Shown here: positions 9,988-54,311 of the stretch, in pieces
How the letters are laid out: each line of letters opens with the position of its first letter
Position numbering within the stretch: the stretch's first letter is position 1
NCBI GenBank assembly: GCA_963676915.2
Contig: CAXXVK010000019.1
Location: 1 to 64,000 of the forward strand
Source: Myxococcota bacterium
Lineage (GTDB): Bacteria; Myxococcota_A; SURF-8; G963663525
Length of the DNA: 64,000 bases
Reading direction: 5' to 3'
Made by a program: the position numbers and the translations under genes
The notes under the pieces: generated by a model
Told to the model about the DNA's origin: nothing
The model's input: only the letters and a program-made list of their open reading frames with translations
Database searches by the model: none

Positions 9988-10007
9988 GCAGGGAAGGGGG
10001 ACTTCGC

Positions 10008-10036: not shown

Positions 10037-10167
10037 AGCACCATCGATATTCGATTAGGCTGAACGGAAAAACCCGATTTCGTTACTCCGAAAACGAGGT
10101 TCGTTGACGTTCGGAACGGTTGATAAGGACGTATGACAACCCCATGAAAAGTGGAATCAGATCGCGT

Positions 10168-37382: not shown

Positions 37383-39881
37383 TTAATGGAGAGACCTACA
37401 AAGACGGAAGCCGACACCGTAGCCACGGTATGAAGGCGAACCGCTGGTGCGTGTTGCTGACCGGCAGCTCTTAGCGCCGTTGCTCCAAAAGCCGCCACGC
37501 ACGACGTGGCTTGTGCCAGAGCTCTGACCTATGGGATCGGTTGCTACATCGTCCTCATAGGAACTCTGATTGAAGTTCCAGGTCCATTCTGCAAGATTGC
37601 CGCTCATATCGTAAAGATCCCAGTCGTTAGGCTCTTTGGTACCCACAGGCTTTGTGCCATAGTCCGGAGTTTCCGGGTTGCCATTGTTCCCACAGAACCA
37701 ACCGATCCGGTCCAAGTTGGAATCAACAGGAACACAGTATTGTTGTGTGATCGTTCCATCGTTTTCATCATTCTGATAAAACGCCGTATATTGATTCCCT
37801 GCTCGAATCGCATATTCCCATTCTGCCTCCGTCGGCAACCGATATCCCTCACAATCCTGTGGTTTTTCCACACCATCGGCCAAGGTCACTGTCGCCGACT
37901 CAATCCCGCCGTAGGTCAAATCATCATCGAAGCAATCCATATAATCAGTGCCTACGCTTCCGCCGTATTTGCATTCCACGGCCGTCAGTGCATAGCAGGT
38001 AGGGCGTTCGGCATTCAAGGACAACCGATTCGCATATGCCAGGGTATCATACCAACTCACGTACTTTATCGGATGATCGTCACCGCAGCCATTTGCACAT
38101 TCGGAATAGTAGGTATCCATTGCATTCCAACCTGTTAACGCCTCGAATTCCTTTTCCGTGATCTCATACCTGTTCAATTCGAAGTCGTAGGTCAATGTTA
38201 CTTGATGAAGCGTTTCATTGGAAAATCGCCCCAATTCCTCTGTGCAAGCGCCTGGATATCCCTCCGGGCAGTCGCCGTCCGGCGAACCCATCCAGAACGT
38301 TCCAGCGGTGATGGAAACAAAACTTGGAGTCGGGATCAACTGACAATTGGGATAATCCGAATAGCCTTGCGCACATTCGGTACAGTAATCGCCGGCATAA
38401 CCGGTCGCGCAAGTGCAGAAATCGTCTTCGCTGTTACAAGTACCGTGATCGTTGCAGGAGTACGTCGTTCCCGAGCATATACCGCCCGTTCCGCAGATAT
38501 CCGTATGCGTGCAGGCGTTGGCGTCGTTGCAGTTTCCCGATTCTTTCGTTGTCCATGCGTTCCAGGCTGAGACCGATTCACAAATCCGACATGTGCCATC
38601 TCCTGATGCGGTTTCCGTCGTGCCCTCGTCGAAGCAGGCTTCAGCAATGTAACAGCCCGCATTTGTACCGCTTACCACACAGTCACCACTGCTGCATGCT
38701 GTTTGTGTGCAACCGATTTCGTCCGTGCAGGGGTTCGTGTCGTCGTTGACCGCTACACATACGCCACCATTGCATACATTGTCCGTACAGGGGCGACCGT
38801 CATCTGTCACCGCACAGGTCGCCCCGTCCATGTTCGACCATCCTCGATCATCGTTGTCGGGATCGCAAGCCACGCAGCCGTCAGTATCCTGGCTGGTACC
38901 TTCCGCCACACAGTTTCCATCGATCAAGCAGCCCGTCGTTACCGTTTCCACCACACAAGAGCCGTCCACACAATGATCATTCGTGCATTCGTGATCCAAG
39001 TCACAAGTGTTTTCGTTGTCGTTTGTGTCCGTGCAGGTGTTGGCTACGCATGAAAGGTCCGTGCAGGGGTTGTCATCCTCAGCATAGTCGGTACAACCAA
39101 GTGCATCGTAGCAATCTTTGCAAATCCCGGAAACGCACTGGTCGGTATTATCCTCACCACAGGATGTACCGTCCGAAGCGTTTGGATTCGTACAAATTCC
39201 AGAGGCGATATCGCAGGCTCCGGCAACGTGGCAATCATCCGAAGCGGTGCAGATTACCGGAGCCGTAGTTTCGTTGCACGAGCCGCTGACACAGGTGCTT
39301 ACTCCGTTGCAAGCGTTGGAATCGTCATTGCAGATTTCACCGTCCGCAACAAAAGTATCCACCGGGCAATCTTCGTCTATGCCATCGCAGACTTCCGCGA
39401 TATCGCATTCCCCGGCAGAAGCGCGGCACTCAAAATCCACTTCATGCAACGTCCAGTCGTTTTTCATCATGGTAGAATCACAGACGAGGCACGCGTGTTC
39501 AGGGTTATTGGTCCCGTCGGCAACGCAAACTGCGTTTATGTCGCAGAAGCCGGTATCGCAAATACAATGCCCGGTCTCTGCGTCGCAAACGCGGTGATCG
39601 GTTTCATCGCAGGTGTTCGAAGAGCAAAGTTCGTCTGTTTCCTCTTCTTGATCGTTAGTGACAGTATCGTCGTCTGCATCACCATCACCATCGGTATCGA
39701 CATCATTATCGGTAGAACCATCGCCATCGGCAATCGGATCATCACTATCCGTCGTCTGTTGGTCACTATCTCCAATGGTCGAACCGGTGTTACCCTCCGA
39801 GGCACAACCTGAAAACACGATTAACAGCATCACGATACAAATACCTGACATACAACCTGATCTTGTCATTATTGCACTCAC
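37383..39881 (-). CDS. Lipoprotein with Cys-rich stalk and C-terminal FGE-sulfatase/SUMF1 (CLec-fold) domain
   Basis: Lipobox FSGC; DGD-rich linker; disintegrin-like and EGF repeats; GTFWMGSP, YRLPTEAEWEYA, LYDMSGN..EW, RGGFW...GFR. Confidence 0.9.
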   Translation of the reverse strand: MSAIMTRSGCMSGICIVMLLIVFSGCASEGNTGSTIGDSDQQTTDSDDPIADGDGSTDNDVDTDGDGDADDDTVTNDQEEETDELCSSNTCDETDHRVCDAETGHCICDTGFCDINAVCVADGTNNPEHACLVCDSTMMKNDWTLHEVDFECRASAGECDIAEVCDGIDEDCPVDTFVADGEICNDDSNACNGVSTCVSGSCNETTAPVICTASDDCHVAGACDIASGICTNPNASDGTSCGEDNTDQCVSGICKDCYDALGCTDYAEDDNPCTDLSCVANTCTDTNDNENTCDLDHECTNDHCVDGSCVVETVTTGCLIDGNCVAEGTSQDTDGCVACDPDNDDRGWSNMDGATCAVTDDGRPCTDNVCNGGVCVAVNDDTNPCTDEIGCTQTACSSGDCVVSGTNAGCYIAEACFDEGTTETASGDGTCRICESVSAWNAWTTKESGNCNDANACTHTDICGTGGICSGTTYSCNDHGTCNSEDDFCTCATGYAGDYCTECAQGYSDYPNCQLIPTPSFVSITAGTFWMGSPDGDCPEGYPGACTEELGRFSNETLHQVTLTYDFELNRYEITEKEFEALTGWNAMDTYYSECANGCGDDHPIKYVSWYDTLAYANRLSLNAERPTCYALTAVECKYGGSVGTDYMDCFDDDLTYGGIESATVTLADGVEKPQDCEGYRLPTEAEWEYAIRAGNQYTAFYQNDENDGTITQQYCVPVDSNLDRIGWFCGNNGNPETPDYGTKPVGTKEPNDWDLYDMSGNLAEWTWNFNQSSYEDDVATDPIGQSSGTSHVVRGGFWSNGAKSCRSATRTSGSPSYRGYGVGFRLCRSLH

Positions 39882-41345: not shown

Positions 41346-41421
41346 TGGCTCCGGCGGTAGGACTCGAACCTACGACCTAGTGGTTAACAGCCACCCGCTC
41401 TACCGATTGAGCTACGCCGGA
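41346..41421 (-). tRNA. tRNA-Asn (GTT)
   Basis: TCCGGCGTAGCTCAATCGGTAGAGCGGGTGGCTGTTAACCACTAGGTCGTAGGTTCGAGTCCTACCGCCGGAGCCA; 76 nt, CCA encoded. Confidence 0.98.
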
Positions 41422-41753: not shown

Positions 41754-41970
41754 TGGGAGTATCGGAATGTGTTTCAACAAACTTGTACTATGGTTTTGTA
41801 ATGATTCCTTCGTTTTCTAGAAATCGGAAAGCAGATGGTTTTGTTGACCGGATATGGAAAAATTGTTGAAAAGATTCACTGTTGTAGAAGCAAGCTTGTC
41901 GTTGGCGGTGGTCTTGTCTATACTTTCTTCGTATTTGGTGAATTCGTTTGTAAATAGTAAGGAATTGCGT

Positions 41971-44547
41971 ATGAGGATACGAACCAAATTCCTGGTTCCG
42001 GCGATTGTCGGGATGATGGTCCTTGGATGCACGGTCTATGTGATCGCCGCCAACGTGTTTCAGAGCACGATAGAAGAAAGCGTCAATCGCAGGATTCGAG
42101 ATCTGATTGCCGCCACAGAGCGGGAATCGGACCTGCTGGCAGAGCGCGCCGTGCAGCTTTCGAGTATCCTGGCCGATCTTCCCGAAGTAAAAGAAGCTTA
42201 CAAGTCGATGCAGGAGGGAAACCTCGATAACGAGAGTGACCCGGTAGTTCAAAAGGCTCGGGAAAAATTACGTCGGGATCTCGTGCGCTATCTTGCGTCA
42301 TTTCGGAACATGTCGCATGGAAACGTACTCAAGGCACATTTTCATTTGCCGACCATCCGAAGTTTTTTACGTGTATGGCGTACCAGGCAAGCATTGAGGG
42401 AAGGGCAATGGATCGACGTTTCGGACGATCTCAGTAGCTTTCGGCAAACCGTCGTTGTGGTCAATCAAAAACGAAGTCCCATCAAAGGGTTGGAATTGGG
42501 GCGAGGGGGATTCACCATTCGTGGGTTGGTCCCGATAACCATGGAAGATGGGCGTCACGCAGGGTCGGTAGAAGTTCTGTATGCCTACGAAGATGTTCTC
42601 CACAGTGTTCTCGATCCGGCCAATACTCGTTTTGCCCTATTCATGAATAAACGATTCCTTCCGATTACAACCGCTTTTGAAAATCGCGAGACTTTCCCTA
42701 TTGTGCCGGATGAGACGGGCGAATACGTATTGTTGGCTTCCACATTGGATAAAGATACAAAACCGCGTTTTCGAACGGAAACATTGTCTCGTGGATACGG
42801 ACAACGTTTTTCCGAACGGAGCGGTGACCTGTTTCGTGCCTATTTTCCCGTCAAAGATTACAATGGGAAACCCATTGGCGTCGTGCAGTTGGAAACGGAC
42901 ATTTCTGCCGTTCATCAAACGATGACGATGTTTCGCCTGTATGTGATAGGAACAACGATTGGGTTGATCGTTTTATTGACGTTTTTGCTCGTGCTGATCG
43001 GGCAGCGCATCACTCGTCCGGTGCAAGTGATGATGGATCGGCTCAATAATATCGCGTATGCCGATGGGGATTTGAGCAGCCGTTTGGTTGTTCGCAGTAC
43101 GGACGAAATCGGCGGCGTTGCGGTGCTTTTCAACGCTTTCGTGGCGAGGCTTCAGGCTTCGTTTTCCGAGATTACGGCAGATCTGGTGGAATTGCAGAAA
43201 AAAGTCAACGCTTTGCTTTCGAACGCGAGTCTACCAACCGGTGAAGCAAAAAACGACGCGAAGAAGGAAGACTCGCCGATTCAGGTTCATTCTATTGCCG
43301 AGGCCACGAGGGCTGTGGGTAAAATCATCGATAAAGTGGAAATCGCTATTGCTCAACGCAGCCGAATAGAAGAGGCACAGCGGCTCCTTGTGGCTATCGT
43401 CGAATCTTCCAACGATGCCATTATGGCGGTGGATCGGGAAGGTTGCATCCTTACATGGAACCTCGGGGCTACCCGGTTGTACGGGTATGAGGAAAAAGAG
43501 ATCCTCGGACAACCGCTGGCGACATTGATCGACGGCAGCCGTACGGAAGAATTGAAAAGTATCCGCGAGGCGATTGAAAGCGGCGTAGTATTTAGGAATT
43601 ACGAGACGATTCGTCGAACGAAAGAAGGCCGGAGTTTTCCTGTATCCATGCTGATTTCACCGATTCTCTCGGAAAGTGGGGAACGAAAAGGTGCGGCGGT
43701 TATCGAGCGAGATATTACCCGACGCAAAGAGCTGGAAAAGTCGGCGGAAATACGACGGAAACAGTTGATGCAAGCCGACAAGTTGGCTTCTCTGGGAACG
43801 CTGGTGGCGGGCATGGCTCACGAAATCAGCAATCCAAACAGTTTCATCATGCTCAATTCTCCGATTATTCTCGAAATCTGGCAAGGTGTATTGCCTGTAT
43901 TGGATCGCTACTACGAGGAAAACGGAGATTTCCAAATCGGAAAAATGAACTATTCCTCCTGTCGTGAATGGGTTCCGATGTTGCTGGAAGACATCGGAAA
44001 AGGTGCGGATAGGATCAAGGGTATTGTGAGTAATCTCAAGGACTTTGCTCGACAGGACATTTCTTCGATGGACCAGGATGTGGATCTGAATGAGGTTGTG
44101 GATTCTGCCATTACATTGACCGGTAACCGCCTGAAGAAAACCACACGAAAGCTGTCGGTTGAACTGGAAGAAAAGCTGCCGAAAGTAAAAGGCAATTTCC
44201 AGAGAATCGAGCAGGTGGTCATCAATTTGATCCTCAATGCTTGCGATGCTCTGCCCGATATGGACCGGGCCTTGCGGATTTCGACACGAATGGAAGAGGG
44301 AACTCCTACAAGGGTGCTGCTTTGCGTTGAGGATGAGGGCGAGGGAATTGAGTCGGAAATTATGGATCGCATCAAAGACCCGTTTTTCACGACCAAGCGC
44401 GAAAGTGGCGGAACGGGACTGGGGCTTTCGATTTCGGATGGAATCATCAAAGATCACGATGGCGTTTTGAGCTTCGATTCCATCGTGGGAAAAGGTACGA
44501 AAGTAACGATCGGTATTCCGGTTTCGGAGGATGGGACGGATCGATGA
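41971..44547 (+). CDS. Sensor histidine kinase (dCache-like periplasmic domain, HAMP, PAS, NtrB-like kinase)
   Basis: Two TM segments; DEIG..A..FN (HAMP); WNLGA..LYGY (PAS); GMAHEISNP H-box; NLILNA, DEGEG, PFFTTK, GTGLGL. Confidence 0.95.
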   Translation: MRIRTKFLVPAIVGMMVLGCTVYVIAANVFQSTIEESVNRRIRDLIAATERESDLLAERAVQLSSILADLPEVKEAYKSMQEGNLDNESDPVVQKAREKLRRDLVRYLASFRNMSHGNVLKAHFHLPTIRSFLRVWRTRQALREGQWIDVSDDLSSFRQTVVVVNQKRSPIKGLELGRGGFTIRGLVPITMEDGRHAGSVEVLYAYEDVLHSVLDPANTRFALFMNKRFLPITTAFENRETFPIVPDETGEYVLLASTLDKDTKPRFRTETLSRGYGQRFSERSGDLFRAYFPVKDYNGKPIGVVQLETDISAVHQTMTMFRLYVIGTTIGLIVLLTFLLVLIGQRITRPVQVMMDRLNNIAYADGDLSSRLVVRSTDEIGGVAVLFNAFVARLQASFSEITADLVELQKKVNALLSNASLPTGEAKNDAKKEDSPIQVHSIAEATRAVGKIIDKVEIAIAQRSRIEEAQRLLVAIVESSNDAIMAVDREGCILTWNLGATRLYGYEEKEILGQPLATLIDGSRTEELKSIREAIESGVVFRNYETIRRTKEGRSFPVSMLISPILSESGERKGAAVIERDITRRKELEKSAEIRRKQLMQADKLASLGTLVAGMAHEISNPNSFIMLNSPIILEIWQGVLPVLDRYYEENGDFQIGKMNYSSCREWVPMLLEDIGKGADRIKGIVSNLKDFARQDISSMDQDVDLNEVVDSAITLTGNRLKKTTRKLSVELEEKLPKVKGNFQRIEQVVINLILNACDALPDMDRALRISTRMEEGTPTRVLLCVEDEGEGIESEIMDRIKDPFFTTKRESGGTGLGLSISDGIIKDHDGVLSFDSIVGKGTKVTIGIPVSEDGTDR

Positions 44548-45950
44548 ATTCACAGATCAAACAACAGACGGTACTTTTGGTGGATGACGAAATCCAGATT
44601 CTGCGAAGCTACGAAATGACGTTGCGGATGGAAGGCTACACTCGTGTGATTTCCAATCAGGACAGCCGTGAAACACTGGCAGCCTTCAAAAAATCGCAGC
44701 CGAGTCTTGTATTGCTCGATCTAACGATGCCGCATGTATCCGGTGAAGAGTTGTTGAAAGATATCAAGGCTGACTCTCCACAGACGCCGGTGGTGATCAT
44801 TACCGGAAACGATGCCGTCGAAACGGCGGTGGATTGCATGAAGAACGGCGCCGAGGATTATCTCGTCAAGCCGGTTTCGAAAGATCGCCTCCTTCGTACC
44901 GTAGAGCGCGTTCTTGCCTCCAACGAGTGGCGGAAGCACGTTCAATTGCTCGAACGAAAAGTAAAATCTCCACAATTGGAAAATCCCGAGGCGTTTTCGG
45001 AAATCGTTACGAATCATTACAAAATGTTGTCCCTGTTCCGTTATGCCGAAACTATCGCCGATTCTTCCGAGCCGGTGTTGATCGTCGGAGATACAGGAGT
45101 CGGTAAAGAACTGATGGCGCAAGCCATATACAAAGCGGGAGGTAGTAGAGGAGAGTTCGTCGCCGTAAATATCGCAGGAGTCAATGAACAGGTATTCGAC
45201 GATACGCTTTTCGGGCACATCAAAGGAGCTTTTACCGGGGCTGAAAAATCGCGAGCCGGGTTGGTCGAAAAAGCGTCGGGAGGCACGCTTTTCCTCGATG
45301 AAATCGGTGACTTGCCTATGGAATCGCAAGTAAAGCTATTACGACTGATTCAGGAAGGGGAGTATTTTCCGTTGGGTCAGGACATTCCGAAAAGTGCGGA
45401 TATTCGTATTGTTGCGGCAACCAATCAACCGTTGCAAACACGTTGCGAAGCGGGAACATTTCGTAAAGACCTGTTTTTCCGTCTCAACACGCACAATATT
45501 GCTTTGCCGCCTTTGAGCGAGCGAGCCTGCGACATCCCCTTGCTTGTCGAGGTGTTTCTTCAGGAAGCCACAAAAAGTCGTCCTGATGCCGTAGAACTGG
45601 AATTCGAGACGATTCTACCGGATCTCGTTGCGTATGCATTTCCCGGCAATGTCCGAGAATTGCGCTCGATGGTTTTCGATGCCGTAGCCAGTGGGTCGCT
45701 TGATGTTCTCGCCGAACGATTGGGAACGAATCGCGAGAAATGTCTTCTTCAACCACTACCTGAGGTTTGCAGAGATCAGCAACAAGGCCAGCTTGCCTTT
45801 CCACAATCTTTGCCGACGATGGAAGACGCCAAGGATATGCTTATCGAAGAAGCTTTGAGACGTAGCGGTGGAAACAAAACCATGGCGGCAAAATTGCTGG
45901 GAATGACACGACAGGCGTTGAATAAGCGATTGAGGAAAAACGAAGTGTAA
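44544..45950 (+). CDS. sigma54-dependent response regulator (NtrC family)
   Basis: Receiver domain; GDTGVGKE, LFGHIKGAFTGA, LFLDEIG, FPGNVREL; Fis-type HTH. Confidence 0.97.
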   Translation: MNSQIKQQTVLLVDDEIQILRSYEMTLRMEGYTRVISNQDSRETLAAFKKSQPSLVLLDLTMPHVSGEELLKDIKADSPQTPVVIITGNDAVETAVDCMKNGAEDYLVKPVSKDRLLRTVERVLASNEWRKHVQLLERKVKSPQLENPEAFSEIVTNHYKMLSLFRYAETIADSSEPVLIVGDTGVGKELMAQAIYKAGGSRGEFVAVNIAGVNEQVFDDTLFGHIKGAFTGAEKSRAGLVEKASGGTLFLDEIGDLPMESQVKLLRLIQEGEYFPLGQDIPKSADIRIVAATNQPLQTRCEAGTFRKDLFFRLNTHNIALPPLSERACDIPLLVEVFLQEATKSRPDAVELEFETILPDLVAYAFPGNVRELRSMVFDAVASGSLDVLAERLGTNREKCLLQPLPEVCRDQQQGQLAFPQSLPTMEDAKDMLIEEALRRSGGNKTMAAKLLGMTRQALNKRLRKNEV

Positions 45951-46056
45951 CGGAAACATTTTTCCCGCCTCGGTAATTTTCGTTCCATCAACTGAAAGTT
46001 CTTGAAATTTCTCGTTTTTATGGAAAGTTTCCAAAATCGCGGAAACTAAGTTTCCG
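45951..46056 (+). promoter_or_regulatory. Candidate enhancer (UAS) palindromes for the NtrC-type activator
   Basis: Perfect CGGAAAC-TAA-GTTTCCG (46040-46056); TGGAAA-G-TTTCCA (46021-46033); degenerate copies at 45951 and 45971. Confidence 0.55.
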
Positions 46057-46134
46057 GAATCCCGAGTTTTCCTTCCTAATGTTGAAAATCTCTTAACGTA
46101 TTGAAAATATAGAGCAAACATCCTTTTTGTAGGC

Positions 46135-46150
46135 TGGCATTTCTTTTGCT
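46135..46150 (+). promoter_or_regulatory. sigma54 -24/-12 promoter
   Basis: TGGCAT-TTCTT-TTGCT with GG and GC 12 nt apart, directly after an NtrC gene. IHF-like TTTCAA-TACG-TTA on the minus strand near 46097-46109. Confidence 0.8.
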
Positions 46151-46204
46151 CTATCTGGTGCTCATTGACCATGCCGTCCGATGCGGCGGCTTGAATTGGA
46201 TGCA

Positions 46205-46615
46205 ATGAACGCCAGCCCTCACATTTTAATCGTAGACAACCAGCGAAGCATACGCTTTTCGGTTCGGTTATCGCTGGAATCGATCGGCTACGCCGTCACG
46301 GTCCGTTCCATGGAAGCGGCTTTCGAAGCGCTTCAAGCCAATTCCACACCCTACGATCTGCTCATTGCCGATTTTCAAATCGAGACGATGAACTGCACGG
46401 ATTTTATCTCAAAGCTTCGAACCTATCGAAACGACTTGCCTATTTTACTGCTGGTCGGTACGCGCTGCCGTAAAGAGATCGAAAAACTTTCTCGACTCCC
46501 GGCTATTCATCTTTTGCAAAAGCCATTGGATCGTAGCCGCCTTTTCACTTCCGTTCAAACGGTGCTTGGCGGAAACGAGACGGATTCTTCCTCTAAAAAT
46601 TCCCATCAGTCTTGA
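46205..46615 (+). CDS. Single-domain response regulator receiver (atypical)
   Basis: HILIVDNQ, DLLIADFQI, LQKP; conserved Thr/Ser appears replaced (LLVG). Confidence 0.75.
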   Translation: MNASPHILIVDNQRSIRFSVRLSLESIGYAVTVRSMEAAFEALQANSTPYDLLIADFQIETMNCTDFISKLRTYRNDLPILLLVGTRCRKEIEKLSRLPAIHLLQKPLDRSRLFTSVQTVLGGNETDSSSKNSHQS

Positions 46616-46637
46616 AGAATGTGAAAGGAGTTCCTGC

Positions 46638-47954
46638 ATGTTTCAAACGCAACGACCGAAACCATTGATTGGATTCAAACGATTTGTTCTCGTGATTTGT
46701 GTGTTCTTTCTGGGATTCGGTTCTTTGGCATATGCTCAGGAACCTACAGACGAAAAAAGCAAAGTGGAGCCTGCCTCACAACCGCTGAAAGCAAAGCCTC
46801 TCAAGCTGGAAAGCTCCGACGGCAGGTTGTCGATGGTCTTCGGCTTTGCGGCACAAATGCAATATGACGCTACTTGGAGCAACGTCAATGAGGCGAATGC
46901 TTCCAAAACGTCGTTTGACCATCTGTTCACTTTCAAAAGAATTCAGCCGAGTATCAAAGGTCATTTGTTCAGTAAAGACCTTACCTACAAATTCCAAATA
47001 GAAACGATTCCCGGAAAAATCACCCTGATGGACCTGTTCCTCGATTACAAAGCCAACGAGCAGGTTCGGTTCCGTATGGGTGCTCACAAGCCTGGATTCT
47101 CTCGTAAGCGTATGAATTCATGGAAGAATCAACAGTTGGTCGATTTTTCCAACGCTCCGCGATACTACGGCACCGAGAGGGCGCTTGGACTCACGATGCA
47201 CAACGGATACGGCAAAAAAACCGAGCATGAATACGAGATCGGTGTGTACGGCGGTATGCCTTGGCGTCCCAATTGCGCCAAAGGAATCGCTACCGTCAGC
47301 AAACGAGGCATGGACAATCCAAGCCTCTTATCCGATAAAAGCAAGCCGTACAACGAGCTTCACCCGGAAATCATCGGCCATTACGCCTATAACGCCAACG
47401 GGATCGATGTGTCCACCGAAACAGACTGGGAGAGACGAGACTTTCGCTATTCTCTAGGTATCGGTTTTTCTTACGATTTCCGCCCCCAACCGTTCCGTGA
47501 TCCAGCAGCGCGCACGGCGGTCGAAGCGATGATCAAGTCCCACGGATTCAACTTTTTCGGAACGTTCTTCACGGCTTTCCACGATCCTAAATCCGGCCTT
47601 GCCACGGACATCGAACCGGCATTTATCGGTGGATTCGCGCAGGTGGGATACCTCTTCCCGGTTCCGGTCGAAGTGGCCTTGCGCTATTTCGGCAACATGA
47701 CGATGAAAGATTTTCGGGACAGTTCCAAAGCCAATGCCACGGCACAAATCGCGGCTGATGCCGCCCTGGCGAGCCAGTACAAAGGCGCGGGCGACTTGAA
47801 AAGCGAGCATGAGCTTGCCGCCGGTTTCAATTATTACCCCTTCGGTCGTCACGTAAAGCTGGCTACGGACGTTAGCTGGATCATGAAGGATTACGACTCC
47901 AAAGATGCTCAAAGCGACGCCCGCTGGCGAATGCTGATGCAGTTCTACTTCTAA
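46638..47954 (+). CDS. OprO/OprP-like (anion-selective) porin
   Basis: AAAGGAG RBS; signal peptide; FKRIQPSIKG, RFRMG.HK.GFSR, RALG.T.H, AGFNYY..GRHVKL, terminal MQFYF. Confidence 0.8.
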   Translation: MFQTQRPKPLIGFKRFVLVICVFFLGFGSLAYAQEPTDEKSKVEPASQPLKAKPLKLESSDGRLSMVFGFAAQMQYDATWSNVNEANASKTSFDHLFTFKRIQPSIKGHLFSKDLTYKFQIETIPGKITLMDLFLDYKANEQVRFRMGAHKPGFSRKRMNSWKNQQLVDFSNAPRYYGTERALGLTMHNGYGKKTEHEYEIGVYGGMPWRPNCAKGIATVSKRGMDNPSLLSDKSKPYNELHPEIIGHYAYNANGIDVSTETDWERRDFRYSLGIGFSYDFRPQPFRDPAARTAVEAMIKSHGFNFFGTFFTAFHDPKSGLATDIEPAFIGGFAQVGYLFPVPVEVALRYFGNMTMKDFRDSSKANATAQIAADAALASQYKGAGDLKSEHELAAGFNYYPFGRHVKLATDVSWIMKDYDSKDAQSDARWRMLMQFYF

Positions 47955-47988
47955 AATCCCATAAACCTCCCAAAAAGGAGCCTACAAA

Positions 47989-49344
47989 ATGAAACGAGCG
48001 GTGAACCTGGCGGTATTTGTCTTATTGACGGCGATGTTGGTGCTGGCCACGGGATCTCTGGCCAGTGTACATGCACAGGCCGATGGCGGATCGACTTCCT
48101 TGATTCGTAACGAGATGCCCGAGCGTATTCAACAGGCGATTCAAAAGAGCCTTGAAAATCCCACCCATGCGGCGAAAACGAAAGAAGTAATCAAACCGGC
48201 AGAAAATCCGGGGCTTTTCGGTATTCCCGGCGCTCCGAATCCCTCCTATTTTCTGGGGTTCCTCTGGGCTATCTGGGTTGGTTGGATCTTTTCGACGGTC
48301 GGTGCATTCGGTGGAATCATGGCCGGTGTCGGGCACATCACGATTTTCGGTCTGGGTGATTACGCCAAAAGCTTTGGCAGCGGAAATCCGCTGAACAAGC
48401 TGTTGACCGATAGCATTCGCGTGTCCAACCAATGGCTTGTGGGAATCAGCGGAGCGATTTCGAGTTTCAACTACTACAAAATGAAACGGTTGGTTCTACC
48501 GATTGCCGTTAGCCTCGCGGTGGGGTCTGTTGCCGGTTCCTACTTGGCCCCGCGACTGACCGCCGGACAGGTCAACCTTAAAGACTACCTGGGATTTTTC
48601 GGGCTGATCGTGTTGATTCTCGGAGGGTACCTGTTTTACCAGACGACGCCTCGTGGGCGTGCCAAGCAGAAAGCGGCCAAAGCAGCGGCTGAAGCTTTTG
48701 AAAAAGCCCAGAAAGAAAAGAAATCCGACGATGACAGCGTAGAAGGCGTAGAAGTGCTGGAAGGCAGCATGGGGATGATGTTCGGAGCCTTGGCGCTCGT
48801 ACTTGTCGGCGTTTTGTTCGGAAACCTTGGAGAAAATCTGTTCGAAGGCGCGTTGTACGTAAGTTACGGCATCGTCGGCTTGGGATTGTCTCTGATGTTT
48901 TTCCTTCCCAAGAAAAACATCCGTTTCACATTCTTCGGTGTCGAGTTCGGATTCAAAGCGTACATTCCCGCCGTAGGTGGTTTTTTTATCGCCGCTATCG
49001 CCAGTTTCCTGGGGGTTGGCGGTGGATTCCTGCTGGTTCCTTTCCTGACCAGCGTGGCAGGATTGCCGATGTTCCTGGTTGCCGGAACCAGTGCGCTGGC
49101 CGTGCTCGTCGGGATGATCGTCAGTATCTTCACCTACATCGTGGGTAAGGGCGTTATCGTTCCCTGGACGTTGATCGGTGTGGAATTGATCGGAATTTTC
49201 GTCGGTTCGATGATCGGACCGCGAACTCAGAAATACATCCCCGATATCTGGCTGAAACGGCTGTTTATCGTCCTCGCATTTTATGTGGGTATTCGATACT
49301 GCACGAAGGGCTTTTTGGGATACAGCATTCTTCCGCCGTTTTGA
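47989..49344 (+). CDS. TauE/SafE-family sulfite/sulfur-oxyanion transporter
   Basis: WVGWIFSTVGAFGG and FLGVGGGFLLVP repeats; GTS; many TM segments. Confidence 0.88.
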   Translation: MKRAVNLAVFVLLTAMLVLATGSLASVHAQADGGSTSLIRNEMPERIQQAIQKSLENPTHAAKTKEVIKPAENPGLFGIPGAPNPSYFLGFLWAIWVGWIFSTVGAFGGIMAGVGHITIFGLGDYAKSFGSGNPLNKLLTDSIRVSNQWLVGISGAISSFNYYKMKRLVLPIAVSLAVGSVAGSYLAPRLTAGQVNLKDYLGFFGLIVLILGGYLFYQTTPRGRAKQKAAKAAAEAFEKAQKEKKSDDDSVEGVEVLEGSMGMMFGALALVLVGVLFGNLGENLFEGALYVSYGIVGLGLSLMFFLPKKNIRFTFFGVEFGFKAYIPAVGGFFIAAIASFLGVGGGFLLVPFLTSVAGLPMFLVAGTSALAVLVGMIVSIFTYIVGKGVIVPWTLIGVELIGIFVGSMIGPRTQKYIPDIWLKRLFIVLAFYVGIRYCTKGFLGYSILPPF

Positions 49345-49368
49345 TCGTCAGAAAGAGGAGCGGCCTGC

Positions 49369-49890
49369 ATGAGCACTCTGGAACATATCATCTTTCAGCC
49401 GTTTCTCTGGGTCGGCGAGCCGATCTCGGCCTTTTGGCTGGGATCGGCGACGCTGGCTCTTATCGCTCTTGCCATGGGACAGGTTACGGCCAAAGTTGCG
49501 TTGGCGGTGAACGGGAGTCATCTCGACCGTCATGTTGCAGATGCCCAGTCCTATGAAAACACGTATCTGGAGATGCTGAAGCAGGGTGAGGCGGAACATC
49601 GTTCCGGTGTCAACCAATTGGCGAACGAAGCTTTCGGCAAGGCGTTTTTCATGGGGATTGCCATTAGCGCCGCCAGTCTCTGGCCATTGTTTCTCGCCGC
49701 CGGGTGGATCGACGCACGTTTTGCGGGGATACGTCTTCCCATCGCAGGATTGAATACGAGTCTGAGCAATATTGCTCCATTGATTATTGCCTATATCGTT
49801 TTTTACATTCTTTTCGTAAAAATGGGTAAAATGATGCGAAAATTCCGAACGAGTCGTGCCGATACCAGTGGAAAACGAGGTGACCGATGA
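49369..49890 (+). CDS. Small membrane protein of the TauE-molybdoenzyme cluster
   Basis: GAGGAG RBS; about 3 TM segments; NQLANEAFGK.FF; ATGA overlap with the next gene. Confidence 0.75.
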   Translation: MSTLEHIIFQPFLWVGEPISAFWLGSATLALIALAMGQVTAKVALAVNGSHLDRHVADAQSYENTYLEMLKQGEAEHRSGVNQLANEAFGKAFFMGIAISAASLWPLFLAAGWIDARFAGIRLPIAGLNTSLSNIAPLIIAYIVFYILFVKMGKMMRKFRTSRADTSGKRGDR

Positions 49891-51977
49891 GGAAGTCTGT
49901 TTATACGTTGTGTGGAATGTGTTCGGTTCGCTGTCCGATTCGTTGCGAAGTCGAAGACGGTCGCGTCGTCTGGGTGGAAGGAAATCCCTATCTTTTGGAC
50001 GGAGCATTGTGCGGCAAAGGTTCCGCCGGTCCGAACATGATCTATCGCGAGGAACGTCCGCAAGGACCGATGATTCGTCAGGGAAAACGCGGCAGCGGAC
50101 AATGGAAACGAGTAGGCTGGGATGAAGCCCTGGACTATACGGCCGAAAAGCTTTCGAAAATTATCGAAAGGTTCGGTGGACGCTCGGTGCTGTTCAGTTG
50201 TCGAGGCGGTCCTTTTCAGGATTTGCCGAAAACGTTTCTAAAAGCATTGGGATCGCCCAATTACACCAACCACGATGCTGCGTGCGGAATCAACGTTCAT
50301 CACGCAAGTCAGTCGGTGTATGGTTTGGGTCGAAAAGGTTTCGGGTATGACATCAAGAATGCGAAGCATCTGGTTGTGCTCGGACGGAACCTGTTGGAAT
50401 CGCTGCAAGTCGGCGAAGCTCGCAATGTGATCCACGCACTGAAAAACGGGATGAAACTCACGTACATCGACGTACGGGCGACGGTTACGGCGAGCAAGGC
50501 GTCACGGTTCTGGATGATTCGTCCCGGTACGGATTACGCGCTGCTTCTTGGACTGATTCGCGAAATTCTCGAACAAAAAGCCTACGATGTAGATTTTATA
50601 TCCAAATATACCCTTGGTCTGGACTATTTGGAGGCGTCCACCAAACATTACACGCCTGAGTGGGTCGAGCATCAGACCGGCATTCCCGCCGAGCAGATTC
50701 GGGAATTCGTTCGGGAAATCGCAGGGCAGCGTCCTCAGGTGATTTTCCATCCTGGGTGGATGTTTTCCCGGTATCGCAACAGTTTTTACGTCAGTCGTGC
50801 GCTTCACATCCTGAATGTCCTGATGGGTAATATCGAAGTCGAAGGCGGACAGATTTTGATGAAAGGCATGTCGGATGCCGGATACGAAGGTTTAAACGCT
50901 CTAGCGGATCGTCTGCCGTCACCGAGAGACAAGCGGGCTGATGGAGTTGGCTGGAAATACAAGCATTTCGATTCCGGTCCGGGATTGTACCAGCTATTTC
51001 AGAACGCCATCATGAACGGCGAACCGTATCCGTTGAAAGCTTACTTCTTTTATCGGCATGACCCGCTTGTCTGTTTCCCGGACCGGGAAGCGCAACTTAC
51101 GATGCTGGATCGTATGGACTTGCTGGTGTCCATCGATGCCAAATATGGTGAAACGACCTGGTACGCCGACGTAATTTTACCAAACTCGACATATCTGGAA
51201 AAAGGATCGCCGATTGCTGTCAAAAAAGGGCCGAAACCACTATTGATTCGGCGCAAGCAAGTTGTCGAGCCGGTTCACGACAGCAAACCCGAATGGTGGA
51301 TTTTCAAAGAGTTGGCCAAACGACTTGGCCATGCCGAGGCTTTCCCTTACGAAACCGTTGAGGATCTCTGGCGTTTTCAACTCGAAGGAACTGGGATCGA
51401 ACTGGAGGATTTCGACGAGAAGGGTTATGTCCAACTGGCGGACGAATCGATTATGGCAGATCGGGAGACACTAAAATTTTCCACGCCAAGCGGGAAAATC
51501 GAATTTAAATCCGGCAAGCTCGATGATGCCGGATTTGAATCCTTGCCCCCCTATCAGGAACCGGAAACACCACCGGAACAGGCGTTTCGGCTCATTTTCG
51601 GACGACATGCGATTCATGCACACGCACACACCCAAAACAATGAATATCTTCACGAGGTTATGCCGCACAACCAGCTATGGATCAACAGCGAAAAAGCCAA
51701 GGAACTGGATATCCGTTCCGGTGATGACGTGTTGGTCAGTTGCATGGGTGGCGCTACCCGATTCAAGACCAAAGCCATGGTGACCGATGCCATCCATCCC
51801 GATGCTGTGTTTACCTATCATGGATTCGGGCGTACGGTGCCGATTCTCAAACGGGCTTATGCCTGTGGAATGGCGGACCAGCGGCTTTGCAAAGGAAAAC
51901 TGACCGATTTCGATCCGGTCGGTGGGGGTATCGCCAATCAGGAAACGTTCGTGAAGATTCGCAAGATTGCGTCATAA
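49887..51977 (+). CDS. Thiosulfate/polysulfide reductase-like molybdopterin oxidoreductase (PhsA/PsrA type), no Tat signal
   Basis: CGMCSVRC...LCGKG FeS motif at the extreme N-terminus; HDAAC (likely Mo ligand Cys); IRPGTDYA; ADVILP..TYLE; C-terminal MopB_CT. Confidence 0.9.
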   Translation: MRKSVYTLCGMCSVRCPIRCEVEDGRVVWVEGNPYLLDGALCGKGSAGPNMIYREERPQGPMIRQGKRGSGQWKRVGWDEALDYTAEKLSKIIERFGGRSVLFSCRGGPFQDLPKTFLKALGSPNYTNHDAACGINVHHASQSVYGLGRKGFGYDIKNAKHLVVLGRNLLESLQVGEARNVIHALKNGMKLTYIDVRATVTASKASRFWMIRPGTDYALLLGLIREILEQKAYDVDFISKYTLGLDYLEASTKHYTPEWVEHQTGIPAEQIREFVREIAGQRPQVIFHPGWMFSRYRNSFYVSRALHILNVLMGNIEVEGGQILMKGMSDAGYEGLNALADRLPSPRDKRADGVGWKYKHFDSGPGLYQLFQNAIMNGEPYPLKAYFFYRHDPLVCFPDREAQLTMLDRMDLLVSIDAKYGETTWYADVILPNSTYLEKGSPIAVKKGPKPLLIRRKQVVEPVHDSKPEWWIFKELAKRLGHAEAFPYETVEDLWRFQLEGTGIELEDFDEKGYVQLADESIMADRETLKFSTPSGKIEFKSGKLDDAGFESLPPYQEPETPPEQAFRLIFGRHAIHAHAHTQNNEYLHEVMPHNQLWINSEKAKELDIRSGDDVLVSCMGGATRFKTKAMVTDAIHPDAVFTYHGFGRTVPILKRAYACGMADQRLCKGKLTDFDPVGGGIANQETFVKIRKIAS

Positions 51978-51987
51978 GGGATGAATT

Positions 51988-52461
51988 ATGGGAAAATATC
52001 GTATCCATCATGATGTGGAAACCTGCATCGGCTGCTATGCCTGCGAAATTCATTGCAAGGCGAACAAGCAGCTTTGCGAGGGGCCTAGGCTATGCCGCAT
52101 TTTTCCCCACGGACCTTCCTGGGATGAAGAAGGCATTCCGAAAATGGCTTTCGTTTTCATCACTTGCCTGCATTGTGAAAAAGCCTGGTGCGTGTCGGCC
52201 TGTCCCTCTGGTGCCATTCGAAAACGGCCCGAGGATGGCATCGTTTACGTTGATTCCGAAGCCTGTATCGGTTGTCGTTTGTGCATGCACGCCTGTCCTT
52301 GGGGAATTCCGCAATACGACGAAAAGCAGCACAAAGTCGTCAAATGCGACCTTTGCAAAGATCGCATCGATAAAGGGTTGAAACCGGCCTGTGTTTCGAA
52401 CTGTGTCACGGGAAGTCTTACGCTCGATGTGCTCCACCCAGAGAACCGGGAGGGAAAATGA
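51988..52461 (+). CDS. 4Fe-4S dicluster subunit (PhsB/DmsB type)
   Basis: CIGCYACEIHC, CLHCEKAWCVSACP, CIGCRLCMHACP, KCDLC...PACVSNC. Confidence 0.93.
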   Translation: MGKYRIHHDVETCIGCYACEIHCKANKQLCEGPRLCRIFPHGPSWDEEGIPKMAFVFITCLHCEKAWCVSACPSGAIRKRPEDGIVYVDSEACIGCRLCMHACPWGIPQYDEKQHKVVKCDLCKDRIDKGLKPACVSNCVTGSLTLDVLHPENREGK

Positions 52462-54311
52462 ACGGAACTAAAACCAACACGCCGGCACCATGCCAGGCAG
52501 CTTGTCCCGCCGGAATCGATGTTCCAAGCTATGTCGCTCTGATCGGCCATGCCCGCTACCGTGAAGCGATCGATCTGATTCGAAGAGACAACCCGTTTCC
52601 TTGGGTTTGTGGCCTTGTTTGTCCGCATCCTTGCGAATCTGCCTGTGTCAAAGGCTATCAGGATGCGCCGATTTCGATTCGCGCTCTCAAAGGTTTTGTA
52701 GCTTCGACCGTTGAAAAGCTGGAAAACGAGGTGGTTTATCATGCACCGTCTCGTTTTTTGGGGAAAGTGGCGGTGATCGGCTCCGGTCCCGCCGGACTCA
52801 CGGCAGCCTATTTTCTCGCGAAAATGGACTACAAAGTAACCATGTTCGAGGCTTTGCCCGTTGCGGGAGGGATGATGGCGGTGGGGATTCCGGCGTATCG
52901 TCTGCCGCGCCACGTTCTGGAAAAAGAGATTCGGAATATCGAGAACCACGGCGTGGAAATCCGCCTGAATACTCCCGTTGGTGGTGATGTGACCCTGAAA
53001 AGCCTGAGGGAAGATGGATACCAGGCCATTTTCGTCGCTTCCGGAGCGCACCATTCGAATGTGATGCGTGTGGATGGCGAATCCGATTACTCGCAGGTTG
53101 TCAGTGCTACGGAATTTCTGAAAAGCCAGCAGATCGGTCACCGTGAGCGACTGGGTAAACGAGTCGTCGTGATTGGTGGTGGCAATAGCGCTTTCGATGC
53201 GGCACGGACCTCACTTCGTCTGGGAAGTAGCGACGTGCACTTGCTTTATCGACGCACCCGGCAGGAAATGCCCGCCCTGGAAGAAGAAATCGAACAGGCG
53301 GAAGAAGAAGGCGTTCGGATTCACTATCTTACGATGCCTACACGCGTTGTTGGAGATGGTGTTTCCGTGGTGGGTATAGAATGTCTTAAAGCTGAATTGG
53401 GCGCGGCGGACCGTTCTGGCCGCCAACGTCCCGTGCCGGTGCAAGGGTCCGATTTCACGATTGAAGCTGACGGAGTGATTGTCGCCATCGGTCAATCTCC
53501 CGACATGGAATGGCTGGATAAAAATGAGGCGATGGAGTTGACGAAGTGGGGAAATCCGATCGTCAACCGCTACAGTCAGCAGACCTCTATACCGGACGTT
53601 TTCGCCGGAGGTGATGCCGTATCCGGTCCTGCTACGGTAATTGAAGCTGTGGCGATGGGGAAACGTGCGGCGCATTCCATTGACAAGTATATCCGGGGAC
53701 TTCCCTTGCCGGATCGACCTGAGCAGGCTGCTCCACGCATGAAGGTGGAAACGATTAAGCTGGAGGCCAAAGACAAAGTACGAATTCCTCCCGCGCCGAT
53801 TCCTCTTCTTCCTGTCGATGAGAGGATTCTTGGATTCGAGCAGATCGAATGCGAGTGGGATGAGGATCGCGCTCGTGACGAAGCTCGACGTTGTTTACGT
53901 TGCGACTTGTGTATCGGTTGCGGCGAATGCGCCCGAATCTGTCGTACGAAAGTGGAAGTCGATGCCTTGCGCTTCGTGGATGCCGGTGGGGATCGGGTGG
54001 TGATCGCGGATATGCTTCGTCCACAGGACAAATGTATCGGTTGTGGAAGCTGTGCCAATGTCTGCCCAACCGGGGCGATCAAAATCGTGGACGAAGGTCA
54101 TACTCGGAAACTGGTCAAATGCGGAGCGACGCTGGCCAAGCTCGAACTGTTGCAATGTTCCAGTTGTGGCGCTTTATTCACGACCAAACGCATGATGGAG
54201 TACATCAAACGTGTGGTCGATGCCGATCGCAAACGCGAGCTGGCTCGGATGCTTTGTCCCGATTGCGCTCGGAAAAAACATGCCGATCACCTTGCTATGC
54301 GGCACCTGTAA
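52458..54311 (+). CDS. GltD/NfnB/DsrL-like FAD- and NAD(P)H-dependent oxidoreductase with extra C-terminal FeS/Cys motifs
   Basis: PCQAACP...VCGLVCPHPCE..C; GSGPAG; GGGNSA and YRRTR; RCLRCDLCIGCGEC; CIGCGSCANVCP; CSSCG...CPDC. Confidence 0.92.
   Translation: MNGTKTNTPAPCQAACPAGIDVPSYVALIGHARYREAIDLIRRDNPFPWVCGLVCPHPCESACVKGYQDAPISIRALKGFVASTVEKLENEVVYHAPSRFLGKVAVIGSGPAGLTAAYFLAKMDYKVTMFEALPVAGGMMAVGIPAYRLPRHVLEKEIRNIENHGVEIRLNTPVGGDVTLKSLREDGYQAIFVASGAHHSNVMRVDGESDYSQVVSATEFLKSQQIGHRERLGKRVVVIGGGNSAFDAARTSLRLGSSDVHLLYRRTRQEMPALEEEIEQAEEEGVRIHYLTMPTRVVGDGVSVVGIECLKAELGAADRSGRQRPVPVQGSDFTIEADGVIVAIGQSPDMEWLDKNEAMELTKWGNPIVNRYSQQTSIPDVFAGGDAVSGPATVIEAVAMGKRAAHSIDKYIRGLPLPDRPEQAAPRMKVETIKLEAKDKVRIPPAPIPLLPVDERILGFEQIECEWDEDRARDEARRCLRCDLCIGCGECARICRTKVEVDALRFVDAGGDRVVIADMLRPQDKCIGCGSCANVCPTGAIKIVDEGHTRKLVKCGATLAKLELLQCSSCGALFTTKRMMEYIKRVVDADRKRELARMLCPDCARKKHADHLAMRHL

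Follow-up and report, generated by a model that had tools for sequence, protein, structure and literature searches.

The closest described systems to the locus treated here include the membrane-bound PsrABC of Thermus thermophilus and PhsABC of Salmonella, and the NADP-dependent formate dehydrogenase of acetogens, in which a cytoplasmic MopB protein is combined with a GltD-like beta subunit. They also include PhsAB-like pairs, of which that of Dissulfuribacter thermophilus lacks a twin-arginine translocation (Tat) leader and a PhsC, and was up 2.45 and 3.51 log2-fold under thiosulfate disproportionation (PMC13490349; this and the other papers cited below are drawn on in excerpt). A TauE protein and a co-occurring transmembrane protein of the same organism were up 1.56 and 1.79. 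The authors of PMC13490349 propose cytoplasmic thiosulfate cleavage by the PhsAB-like pair and urge its characterization, and they also note that a Ttr homologue of D. thermophilus has an OprO/P-like porin next to it. The phsAB genes were strongly transcribed in an epibiont (PMC7117923), and DsrL-type flavoproteins operate in both directions (PMC7596348). The present locus lies in positions 1 to 64,000 of contig CAXXVK010000019.1 of a Myxococcota bacterium (assembly GCA_963676915.2), a stretch of 64,000 nucleotides (nt) called the window below, and joins the genes of a PhsAB-like pair with those of a flavoprotein, a porin, a TauE permease and a pair of regulators.

We consider it likely that the locus encodes a cytoplasmic, NADPH-linked reductase of the Psr/Phs type that is induced through sigma-54 in response to a sensed signal and has its own route across both membranes. 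Open reading frames and Pfam matches gave nine genes, all on the + strand and spanning 41854-54311, at or near the positions where an earlier note, made from the letters of the window alone, had read a kinase, an NtrC activator, a -24/-12 promoter and seven tightly packed genes. All of these were located as described:

41854..44547, +: sensor histidine kinase, with Pfam dCache_3 (periplasmic), HAMP, PAS and HATPase_c above their cut-offs
44544..45950, +: NtrC-type sigma-54 activator, with receiver, Sigma54_activat (6.5e-57) and HTH_8 in Pfam
45952..46055, no strand: three GGAAA-N(1-5)-TTTCC palindromes from a pattern search, candidate activator sites
46135..46150, +: sigma-54 element TGGCAT-N5-TTGCT, TGGCATTTCTTTTGCT, from a motif search
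46181..46615, +: stand-alone receiver, gene 1 of the operon, probable start 46205 (Pfam Response_reg, 4.1e-14)
46566..47954, +: OprO/P-like outer-membrane porin, probable start 46638 (Pfam Porin_O_P PF07396, 34.1 bits against a cut-off of 20.9)
47989..49344, +: TauE/SafE (TSUP) inner-membrane permease, 451 amino acids (aa) (Pfam PF01925, 1.1e-21)
49369..49890, +: membrane protein with three transmembrane helices (3-TM protein), 173 aa, without a Pfam match
49887..51977, +: catalytic subunit A (MopB) with a molybdenum or tungsten (Mo/W) bis-pyranopterin guanine dinucleotide cofactor, 696 aa (Pfam)
51988..52461, +: iron-sulfur (FeS) electron-transfer subunit B, 157 aa (Pfam Fer4_11, 3e-26)
52458..54311, +: DsrL/NfnB/GltD-like flavoprotein C, 617 aa (Pfam, NCBIfam)

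The activator gene overlaps the kinase stop by 4 nt and is followed by a gap of 230 nt before the receiver gene. The gaps across the seven operon genes are 22, 34, 24, -4, 10 and -4 nt, the two 4-nt overlaps joining the stop of the 3-TM protein to the start of A and the stop of B to the start of C. Terminator-like sites in the operon were at chance level (20, with 18.0 expected in shuffles), and the seven genes presumably form one transcript. The HisKA match of the kinase (21.9 bits) was under the Pfam cut-off of 26.9, and two starts of this gene, 41854 and the internal ATG at 41971, are equally plausible.

Subunits A, B and C

Subunit A matched the Pfam families Molybdopterin (9.1e-38) and Molydop_binding (9.7e-15) and the N-terminal Fe4S4 domain (7.3e-11). 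The start codon at 49887 is the earliest that its frame offers downstream of a stop, and FeS cysteines begin as early as residue 9 (the cysteines of the FS0 cluster being C9/C12/C16/C42). Because the frame opens at the FeS motif there is no space for a Tat leader, just as the earlier note had read it. The leader was also absent in 80 locus-derived A sequences and in the 12 nearest representative clusters.

The best solved relative of A was PsrA (2vpw_A; 7.3e-115, 388 bits), followed by acetylene hydratase at 198 bits. Residues 3-693 of A align to residues 38-743 of the 2vpw chain, the first 37 residues of which have no counterpart. The best NCBIfam model was PhsA with 535.9 bits, the next being Fdh-alpha with 252.9 bits, while TtrA gave 78 bits and the ArrA, YnfE/F, NasC, NapA and Fdh models were all far under the PhsA score. 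Judged from its sequence, A is Psr/Phs-like, which upholds the class given to it in the earlier note, and not a certified PhsA. C133 of A, invariant in 20/20 aligned relatives, aligns with Cys173 of the 2vpw chain, which we take to be the Mo ligand of that enzyme and which makes C133 a candidate metal ligand. His145 and Arg332 of 2vpw face R106 and W291 of A, both invariant in the family.

No NrfD-family match was found in the cassette with Pfam, and the four NrfD matches of the host genome are all on other contigs (C53, C2, C8 and C9), so that the absence of a PhsC/PsrC/NrfD anchor from the cassette, also noticed earlier, holds. Because there is no such anchor, the enzyme of the window is not expected to be coupled to quinol. 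A is the sole Psr/Phs-type gene in the host genome (5.18 Mb in 74 contigs, 90.8% complete), the other two MopB matches being 27% identical. The second MopB gene (C72:229583-231493), whose 911-aa open frame contains a single TGA in frame, probably encodes a selenocysteine formate-dehydrogenase-type enzyme.

Subunit B has no signal peptide and includes 16 invariant cysteines in four Cys4 motifs, corresponding to four [4Fe-4S] clusters. It scored 138.4 bits against the DmsB model of NCBIfam, below the cut-off. Flavoprotein C matched Fer4_20 (4.6e-19) and Pyr_redox_2 (9.6e-42) in Pfam, and its 521.3 bits against PRK12771 in NCBIfam were above the cut-off of 516. From its N terminus it consists of a two-cluster domain, an FAD domain in which the NAD(P)H domain is embedded, a linker, and a two-cluster ferredoxin domain followed by a conserved 4-Cys tail; CxxCxxCxxxC motifs are conserved at 479-495 and 526-536. 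The solved relatives of C were 9bov, NfnA (9n5u), 8oh5_C and NfnB (4ylf_B, 1.5e-94). A YRR motif, Y264-R265-R266, was invariant in 7/7 sequences, and experiments on DsrL-2 have linked this motif to specificity for NADP(H) (PMC7596348).

The earlier note had suggested modeling the ABC complex, and of this complex the B-C pair was modeled, from its own alignments. The pair scored 0.76 and the best of three controls 0.00. Of 80 solved complexes 58 attain 0.76, as do 2 of 110 mismatched pairs, a calibration that holds only roughly for alignments of 10 (B) and 7 (C) rows. Contact agreement between runs was at least 90%, and the predicted local distance difference test (pLDDT) score of the partner was 86. 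The modeled interface places residues 494-617 of C, comprising the ferredoxin domain and the Cys tail, on the part of B that surrounds its third cluster motif (residues 94-109). The model supports binding between B and C. The coupling of C to AB as a pyridine-nucleotide module, the link that the earlier note had drawn, is supported by the overlap of the B and C genes, the A-B-GltD order conserved in other loci, the YRR motif and the B-C model, and we infer that NAD(P)H is the electron donor.

Relatives, gene neighborhoods and distribution

The search for relatives of A gave 7999 candidates, 3485 of them with E ≤ 1e-30. The best 120 were 642-771 aa long and came mostly from Desulfobacterota; those that carry a name in their source are termed either thiosulfate/polysulfide reductase chain A or molybdopterin oxidoreductase, and named relatives with 54-57% identity included proteins of Desulfolithobacter, Dissulfurimicrobium, Desulfocapsa and Desulfurivibrio. 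Of 582 matched stretches in GTDB species genomes, 570 encode a relative of A. The neighborhoods of the best 80 of these 570 loci were searched by tblastn with the window proteins, and as many of the loci lie on short contigs, the following counts are lower bounds:

A present: 80 of 80 loci
B beside A: 78 of 80 loci
TauE near A (coverage at least 0.5): 29 of 80 loci
kinase near A: 29 of 80 loci
NtrC-type activator near A: 17 of 80 loci
GltD-type gene downstream on the same strand (at least 40% identity): 15 of 80 loci, a weak match of 25% identity in L035 being excluded
3-TM protein near A: 5 of 80 loci
porin near A: 1 of 80 loci

The 15 loci with the order A-B-GltD were spread over three clades. 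Trees of A were constructed from two sets of rows. The first consisted of the A sequences of the window and the loci that reached 640 aa (80 rows), with the second A copies of L011, L016 and L047 included and with L042, L051 and L053 left out (open frame shorter than 640 aa or none). The second included 55 representatives of 640-830 aa from the search of all proteins, taken from P0121-P0170 together with 11 more distant ones, fragments being dropped. All 135 rows were analyzed with FastTree, and 54 chosen rows with a quick IQ-TREE run under LG+G4. Tat status was assigned by a simple regular expression, which mislabels at least P0130 (SRRTFTKL, with a 66-residue leader). The root was set with the ten most distant leaderless representatives as outgroup; many branches of the representatives are long, and the deep order is unsure.

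Both trees included a strongly supported Tat-less clade, formed by 92 of the 135 rows in FastTree (support 100) and by 41 of the 54 rows in IQ-TREE (Shimodaira-Hasegawa-like approximate likelihood ratio test 100). It holds all the locus proteins and the nearest leaderless representatives, and is nested among Tat-bearing Psr/Phs relatives. Within the clade, the A of the window pairs with L001 and then with L002-L005, forming a subclade of six rows with support 100 and 99. The A-B-GltD order is present in 6/6 members of this subclade, L002 and L004 being cut inside the GltD gene. The subclade is sister to a large clade with TauE and kinase genes, and two other GltD clades and a Nuo clade branch below.

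Crude open reading frame calling, clustering, and Pfam searches with cluster representatives divided the gene contexts of the A-B pairs into four kinds. Context (a) is A-B-GltD with a short C as in the window. Context (b) is A-B-NuoE-[~1010-aa NuoF/GltD-type fusion]-x-NuoE-NuoF-[Fer2_4 + GcvH], in which x is a 261-aa protein and the last gene encodes a Fer2_4/4Fe-4S/GcvH fusion. It was found in two clades (L052:348-11109, L074:10001-20813 and L071:5666-14838, and also L028, L055 and L059). The best PDB relatives of its GltD module are NfnA (9n5u) and 8oh5 chain C, and the context looks like an input module of the HydABC/Bfu type, possibly an electron-bifurcating one.

In context (c), A-B is followed by nuoA-B-C-D-H-I-J-K-L-M, with nuoEFG absent. 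Its A (~694 aa) and B (167 aa) belong to a paralogous Tat-less clade of 10 rows with support 100, whose members come from L057, L060, L061, L062, L067, L069, L070 and L076 and from the second copies in L011 and L047. For four of these loci the distance from A-B to nuoA was read: it is 8-13 nt in L061 (9971-21171), L062 and L057, and 99 nt in L070. The layout also fits GF1_30490/30500, described as PhsA-1/B-1, with GF1_30520 as NuoB (PMC9751629). In this arrangement AB may replace the NADH-input module, giving a cytoplasmic sulfur-oxyanion reductase coupled to the proton-motive force. Context (d) consists of a kinase, a single receiver and A-B, either with TauE and a ~210-aa membrane protein or with no conserved partner.

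The earlier note had also proposed to search other genomes for the porin-TauE-A-B-flavoprotein cassette and its hosts for dsrAB. The block porin-TauE-3TM-A-B-C is intact in three other genomes (L001, L096 and L097), with kinase and activator adjoining. L097 is the most distant of the cassette-bearing relatives, and there the regulators are divergent from the operon and no separate receiver is present. As to dsrAB, the host genome has dsrA (567.9 bits) with dsrB adjacent on contig C53, as well as aprA (901.1 bits), and dsrA was above the cut-off in 10/10 other hosts of A-B-GltD loci, or in 11/11 counting the host of the window.

The distribution of A was analyzed in 30 related genomes, nine of the same order and 21 of the same phylum outside it. 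A close match was present in 3/9 same-order genomes (82%, 85% and 65% identity) and in none of the 21 genomes outside the order, three of which have matches of 33-35% with longer frames. Identity was lower in a genome of the same genus (82%) than in one of another family (85%). The next relatives of A are found in metagenome-assembled genomes of Desulfobacterota, with 57-63% identity. None of five genes flanking the cassette in the window (three downstream, two upstream) was found in the L001, L096 and L097 loci. On this patchiness, the cassette probably travels as a unit and came into this order by lateral transfer.

The flanks themselves are unrelated to the cassette. Upstream there is a tRNA-Asn (GTT) gene at 41346-41421 (-), ~430 nt before the kinase gene, and an acyltransferase gene; downstream, on the opposite strand, there are genes for an unknown 214-aa protein, a nitroreductase-like protein and a TetR regulator. 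As the flanks of the cassette differ among relatives, the tRNA-Asn gene may mark an integration site. Elsewhere in the window, 37383-39881 (-) encodes an 832-aa protein whose C-terminal domain is of the FGE-sulfatase (formylglycine-generating enzyme-like) type and whose long N-terminal part gave no match. The G+C content of the window is 0.41-0.44 at 1-6000 and 10001-12000, 0.58 at 8001-10000 and ~0.51 elsewhere.

Promoter region, regulators and transport genes

The translation of the activator carries a Walker A motif and GAFTGA, the sigma-54 contact loop, and rpoN is present in the host genome (434.8 bits with TIGR02395, whose cut-off is 277.35). The -24/-12 element TGGCATTTCTTTTGCT lies 30-55 nt ahead of the receiver gene. 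The motif alone is within chance, as the window includes four sites with at most one mismatch where 1.63 are expected, and 8 of 100 shuffles reach four. The element is credible because of its position, the presence of rpoN and GAFTGA, the palindromes, and its conservation in three other genomes. The palindrome GGAAA-N(1-5)-TTTCC was matched eight times in the 64 kb, with 1.66 expected and none of 100 shuffles reaching eight, and three of the eight are situated 80-185 nt upstream of the element. An inverted-repeat search of the promoter region had detected none, the arms being just 6 nt, and the pattern search was used instead.

The matching intergenic region of L001 includes TGGCAC-N5-TTGCT and the palindrome GGAAAGTAAGTTTCC. 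In L096, TGGCATCCGCCTTGCT is the sole exact -24/-12 match in 19.5 kb, with 0.04 expected, and is accompanied by two palindromes. The element of L097, TGGCACGTCTTCTGCC, was identified by eye ~85 nt before the porin gene; it has CTGCC at -12 and also comes with two palindromes. A GGAAA-N5-TTTCC palindrome, of the form GGAAAC-N3-GTTTCC, is present in all three of these regions, and promoter and palindromes are kept in all four genomes though the remaining spacer diverges. Control of the operon by sigma-54, which the earlier note had also proposed, is supported by GAFTGA, rpoN, and the conserved promoter with its upstream sites. The activator presumably binds the palindromes, and transcription would depend on sigma-54. 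L097 has a second -24/-12-like site, TGGCATGAATGCTGCT, at 13408-13423 (+), directed at the kinase gene, the regulators of this locus being divergent from the operon; it hints at autoregulation.

Kinase orthologues with 49-63% identity adjoin the cassette in L001, L096 and L097, and receiver orthologues are present in L001 and L096 and not in L097. In 10 other loci, single-domain receivers (cluster c14) occupy the place between kinase and A. A further protein of ~160 aa without a Pfam match (cluster c4) precedes a ~520-aa kinase beside A-B (e.g. L039:19715-20215; L049). It has 22 open reading frames across the loci of relatives, 19 of them within five genes of A, and may be a sensor partner.

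The porin has a signal peptide ending in AYAQE. Its model was of modest confidence (pLDDT 71.6, with low-confidence loops), and the two best fold matches were OprP (2o4v, E 2e-13) and OprO (4rjw, E 1e-12), with TM-scores of 0.59-0.64 and with general porins scoring close behind. Only nine homologues of the porin were present in a set of 5.8 billion proteins. The TauE permease matched PF01925 with 78 bits (cut-off 32.6) over residues 263-436, its N-terminal segment is signal-like, and its central loop is long and charged. Sequence searches of the PDB gave no meaningful match for either the porin or TauE. Both would serve in uptake, though for TauE a role in exporting sulfite, the product, is equally allowed.

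The 3-TM protein follows TauE in 5/5 loci that hold it, twice on the opposite strand from A. More generally, TauE genes near A-B nearly always precede a gene for a three-helix protein of 170-220 aa, of families including c8 and c22 (e.g. L007, L034 and L079). In hhalign comparisons the 3-TM protein gave 88.9% with c8 and 46.5% with c22, and c8 with c22 gave 96.8%. A sub-threshold EMC3_TMCO1 match of c8 was found, and Atlas links the 3-TM protein to clusters named DUF106 (0.92). These leads to DUF106/EMC3-TMCO1 (Oxa1-superfamily-like) proteins are weak, and such proteins are unusual in bacteria. We read the 3-TM protein as a probable accessory subunit of TauE rather than an anchor of AB. A role as hidden AB anchor is unlikely, as the protein follows TauE elsewhere and lacks similarity to NrfD; its 4-nt overlap with A might still reflect a tethering role.

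Proposed mechanism, alternatives and comparison with described systems

In the proposed mechanism, the dCache_3 domain of the kinase would sense an extracytoplasmic signal and the kinase would phosphorylate the NtrC-type activator, which would bind the GGAAAC-N3-GTTTCC sites and open the sigma-54 promoter at 46135-46150. One transcript would give rise to the receiver (possibly a phosphate sink), the porin, TauE with its 3-TM accessory, and a soluble heterotrimer ABC. The anion would cross the outer and inner membranes by way of porin and TauE. In the cytoplasm NADPH would reduce the FAD of C, the C-terminal domain of which would dock on B, and electrons would pass from the FeS clusters of C first to B with its four clusters, then to FS0 in A, and finally to the Mo/W center, ligated by Cys133. 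There thiosulfate would be cleaved to sulfite and sulfide, and the sulfite would be passed on to DsrAB or AprAB, both encoded in the host genome. The couple of thiosulfate with sulfite and sulfide is at about -400 mV, for which menaquinol is far too positive, and NADPH is at about -320 mV under standard conditions. On these potentials, a low-potential cytoplasmic donor avoids the menaquinol problem.

That the substrate is thiosulfate is in our estimate an even chance. It is favored because the sole experimental link of the family, in the papers drawn on, is to thiosulfate, and because the transport parts suit a small divalent anion and the cassette has no sulfur-carrier genes; on the potentials above, a cytoplasmic donor of low potential is also thermodynamically sensible for this couple. 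A lesser but real possibility is that the same architecture acts on polysulfide, persulfide or zero-valent sulfur, as an NADPH:polysulfide reductase serving as electron sink or as the reductive branch of a disproportionation. The electron transfer from NADPH to polysulfide would be downhill on the potentials commonly given, and the nearest solved enzyme, 2vpw, is a polysulfide reductase, though the molecule name deposited with it is 'thiosulfate reductase'. The operon, however, combines a phosphate-type anion porin with TauE and includes no rhodanese, TusA, YedE or Sud-type carrier, and the PsrA residues presumed to line the polysulfide site are not conserved in A. Thermotoga maritima has an analogous cytoplasmic NAD(P)H polysulfide reductase, which also shows thiosulfate reductase activity (PMC9431562), whereas the published proteomic link of the present family, so far as the excerpts go, is to thiosulfate.

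It is rather unlikely that thiosulfate is to be replaced by a non-sulfur oxyanion (selenite, tellurite, arsenate, chlorate or nitrate) and that the cassette is a detoxification or assimilation module. The selenite reductase SrrA is placed in the Psr/Phs group, porin and TauE are generic anion routes, and A falls under the cut-off of the PhsA model. Enzymes of the complex iron-sulfur molybdoenzyme family are moreover described as indistinguishable on sequence alone (PMC12998232). On the other side, the named relatives are all from sulfur-metabolizing lineages of Desulfobacterota and dsrA is present in 11/11 hosts, the ArrA, YnfE/F, NasC, NapA and Fdh scores of A are far below its PhsA score, and the flanks of the cassette have no ars, selenium or nitrogen genes.

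Less probable again is an enzyme run oxidatively, joining for instance sulfide and sulfite to thiosulfate, with electrons going to NADP+ and the product exported via TauE and porin. The thiosulfate couple being more negative than NADP+/NADPH, this direction would be downhill under standard conditions, and members of the TauE family are exporters by their Pfam name. A periplasm-sensing kinase and an outer-membrane porin, on the other hand, fit the acquisition of an external substrate better, and the cassette encodes no partner generating sulfide or sulfite. DsrL-type flavoproteins can indeed work both ways (PMC7596348), but the excerpted published data link the family to the consumption of thiosulfate. 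The reduction of tetrathionate or another polythionate to thiosulfate in the cytoplasm with NADPH, a strongly downhill reaction that would suit the porin adjoining a Ttr homologue in D. thermophilus (PMC13490349), is the least probable of all, given the 78 bits of A against TtrA compared with 535.9 against PhsA, and since such use of a high-potential acceptor conserves no energy.

Returning to the NADPH-linked thiosulfate reductase, several points weigh against it. At standard potentials the step from NADPH to thiosulfate is slightly uphill and needs removal of the products. A is below the curated equivalog cut-off of PhsA (NF012032; 535.9 against 694 bits). His145 and Arg332, not retained in A, are presumably substrate-site residues of PsrA, for which no confirming paper was found, and the substrate pocket of A may differ from that of PsrA. 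The B-C model may owe part of its score to similar solved FeS complexes. Where the sequence after A extends for 3.5 kb or more (54 loci), a GltD gene was present in just 11, which makes NADPH coupling a trait of some clades and not of the whole family. The co-occurrence with dsrA is weak evidence, as the hosts are all from dsrAB-rich lineages. In Desulfolithobacter dissulfuricans, PhsA proteins were scarce during thiosulfate disproportionation (PMC9751629), and phsAB mutants of Desulfovibrio alaskensis, matched to the A of the window by name only, had just mild thiosulfate defects (PMC4215793).

A wider reading, which we offer only tentatively and hold to be doubtful as a whole, is that the Tat-less AB is a plug-in core of cytoplasmic sulfur-oxyanion reductases wired to at least three low-potential inputs: a DsrL-like NADPH flavoprotein as in the window, a module of NuoE, NuoF and a GltD fusion resembling the electron-bifurcating HydABC, and a Nuo complex without NuoEFG. 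ABC would then be a soluble pyridine-nucleotide thiosulfate reductase of dissimilatory sulfur metabolism, and the whole cassette would have been acquired laterally from Desulfobacterota. The first step of thiosulfate reduction or disproportionation in dsrAB-bearing anaerobes is carried out by an enzyme not biochemically identified, and the donor of the PhsAB-like pair is given as unknown in the excerpted reports; the window encodes a donor module that is translationally coupled to B and predicted to dock on it. The parts for sensing, promoter, porin and permease are packed in one transferable cassette, the regulator-promoter pair of which might report the true substrate. The three alternative partner modules offer a comparative frame for how a reaction near -400 mV is driven, and each of them, if the reading is true, would meet the very negative potential of the thiosulfate couple in its own way. 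If the substrate is thiosulfate, hundreds of Desulfobacterota annotations as "thiosulfate/polysulfide reductase chain A" could be sorted into a periplasmic, quinol-linked class and cytoplasmic classes linked to NADPH, bifurcation or Nuo.

The earlier note had proposed the system as a candidate undescribed one, which holds for some of its parts. In the open literature, supplements excluded, no description was found of a trimer of PhsAB with a GltD/NfnB/DsrL-type subunit, of the porin-TauE cassette or of a Nuo-linked PhsAB. A Tat-less PhsAB core without PhsC, by contrast, has already been discussed as a candidate cytoplasmic thiosulfate reductase (PMC13490349, PMC9751629, as excerpted). The 'FdhA-HydB-HydG' cluster of Desulfurivibrio dismutans was considered as a possible published instance and set aside, its partners being named sulfhydrogenase subunits and not GltD-type ones.

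In comparison to the membrane-bound PsrABC of T. thermophilus (2vpw) and PhsABC of Salmonella, the A of the window aligns from end to end and has the same FS0 motif and, opposite chain position 173, the same cysteine, and B is likewise of the four-cluster DmsB/PsrB type. The differences are that the A of the window has no Tat leader, that chain residues 145 and 332 of PsrA are replaced by Arg and Trp, and that the cassette has a flavoprotein instead of an NrfD/PsrC anchor. C shares with DsrL the order of domains and, with the NADP(H)-specific DsrL-2, the YRR motif. Its gene, however, adjoins a molybdoenzyme gene and overlaps B, the dsrAB of the host being on another contig (C53), and C ends in an additional 4-Cys tail, which makes up much of the modeled interface with B. 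The linker of C is ~65 residues, while that of DsrL is ~100 (PMC7596348). The porin resembles OprP and OprO of Pseudomonas in its Porin_O_P match above the cut-off and in its top fold matches, but the sequence identity is ~11%, and its genomic partner is a sulfur-type reductase and not the pho regulon.

The principle of a cytoplasmic MopB fed by a GltD/NfnB-type NADPH flavoprotein is the same as in the NADP-dependent formate dehydrogenase of acetogens, from which the present system differs in that A groups with Psr/Phs and not with Fdh, and in that a four-cluster B is interposed. The MOLY cluster (MolyABC), proposed as a marker of sulfur disproportionation, also joins a MopB A to an FeS B without a classical anchor in Desulfobacterota (PMC12998232). 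MolyAB are, however, predicted in that paper to be extracellular and to have a TorD-type Tat chaperone, whereas AB of the window are Tat-less and the cassette has no chaperone gene. The PhsAB-like pairs, compared by description, are DITHS69_2027/2028 of D. thermophilus and PhsA-1/2 of D. dissulfuricans, which share with the window a Tat-less A and a B without PhsC. As excerpted, they are published as two subunits with the donor left open; the window adds a translationally coupled subunit of the NADPH type and includes the transport and regulatory genes in the same cassette, and its A belongs to a separate six-member subclade. The core is thus of a known though uncharacterized kind, and what is new here is its three-subunit NADPH-type form in one cassette with a dedicated sensor, porin and permease.

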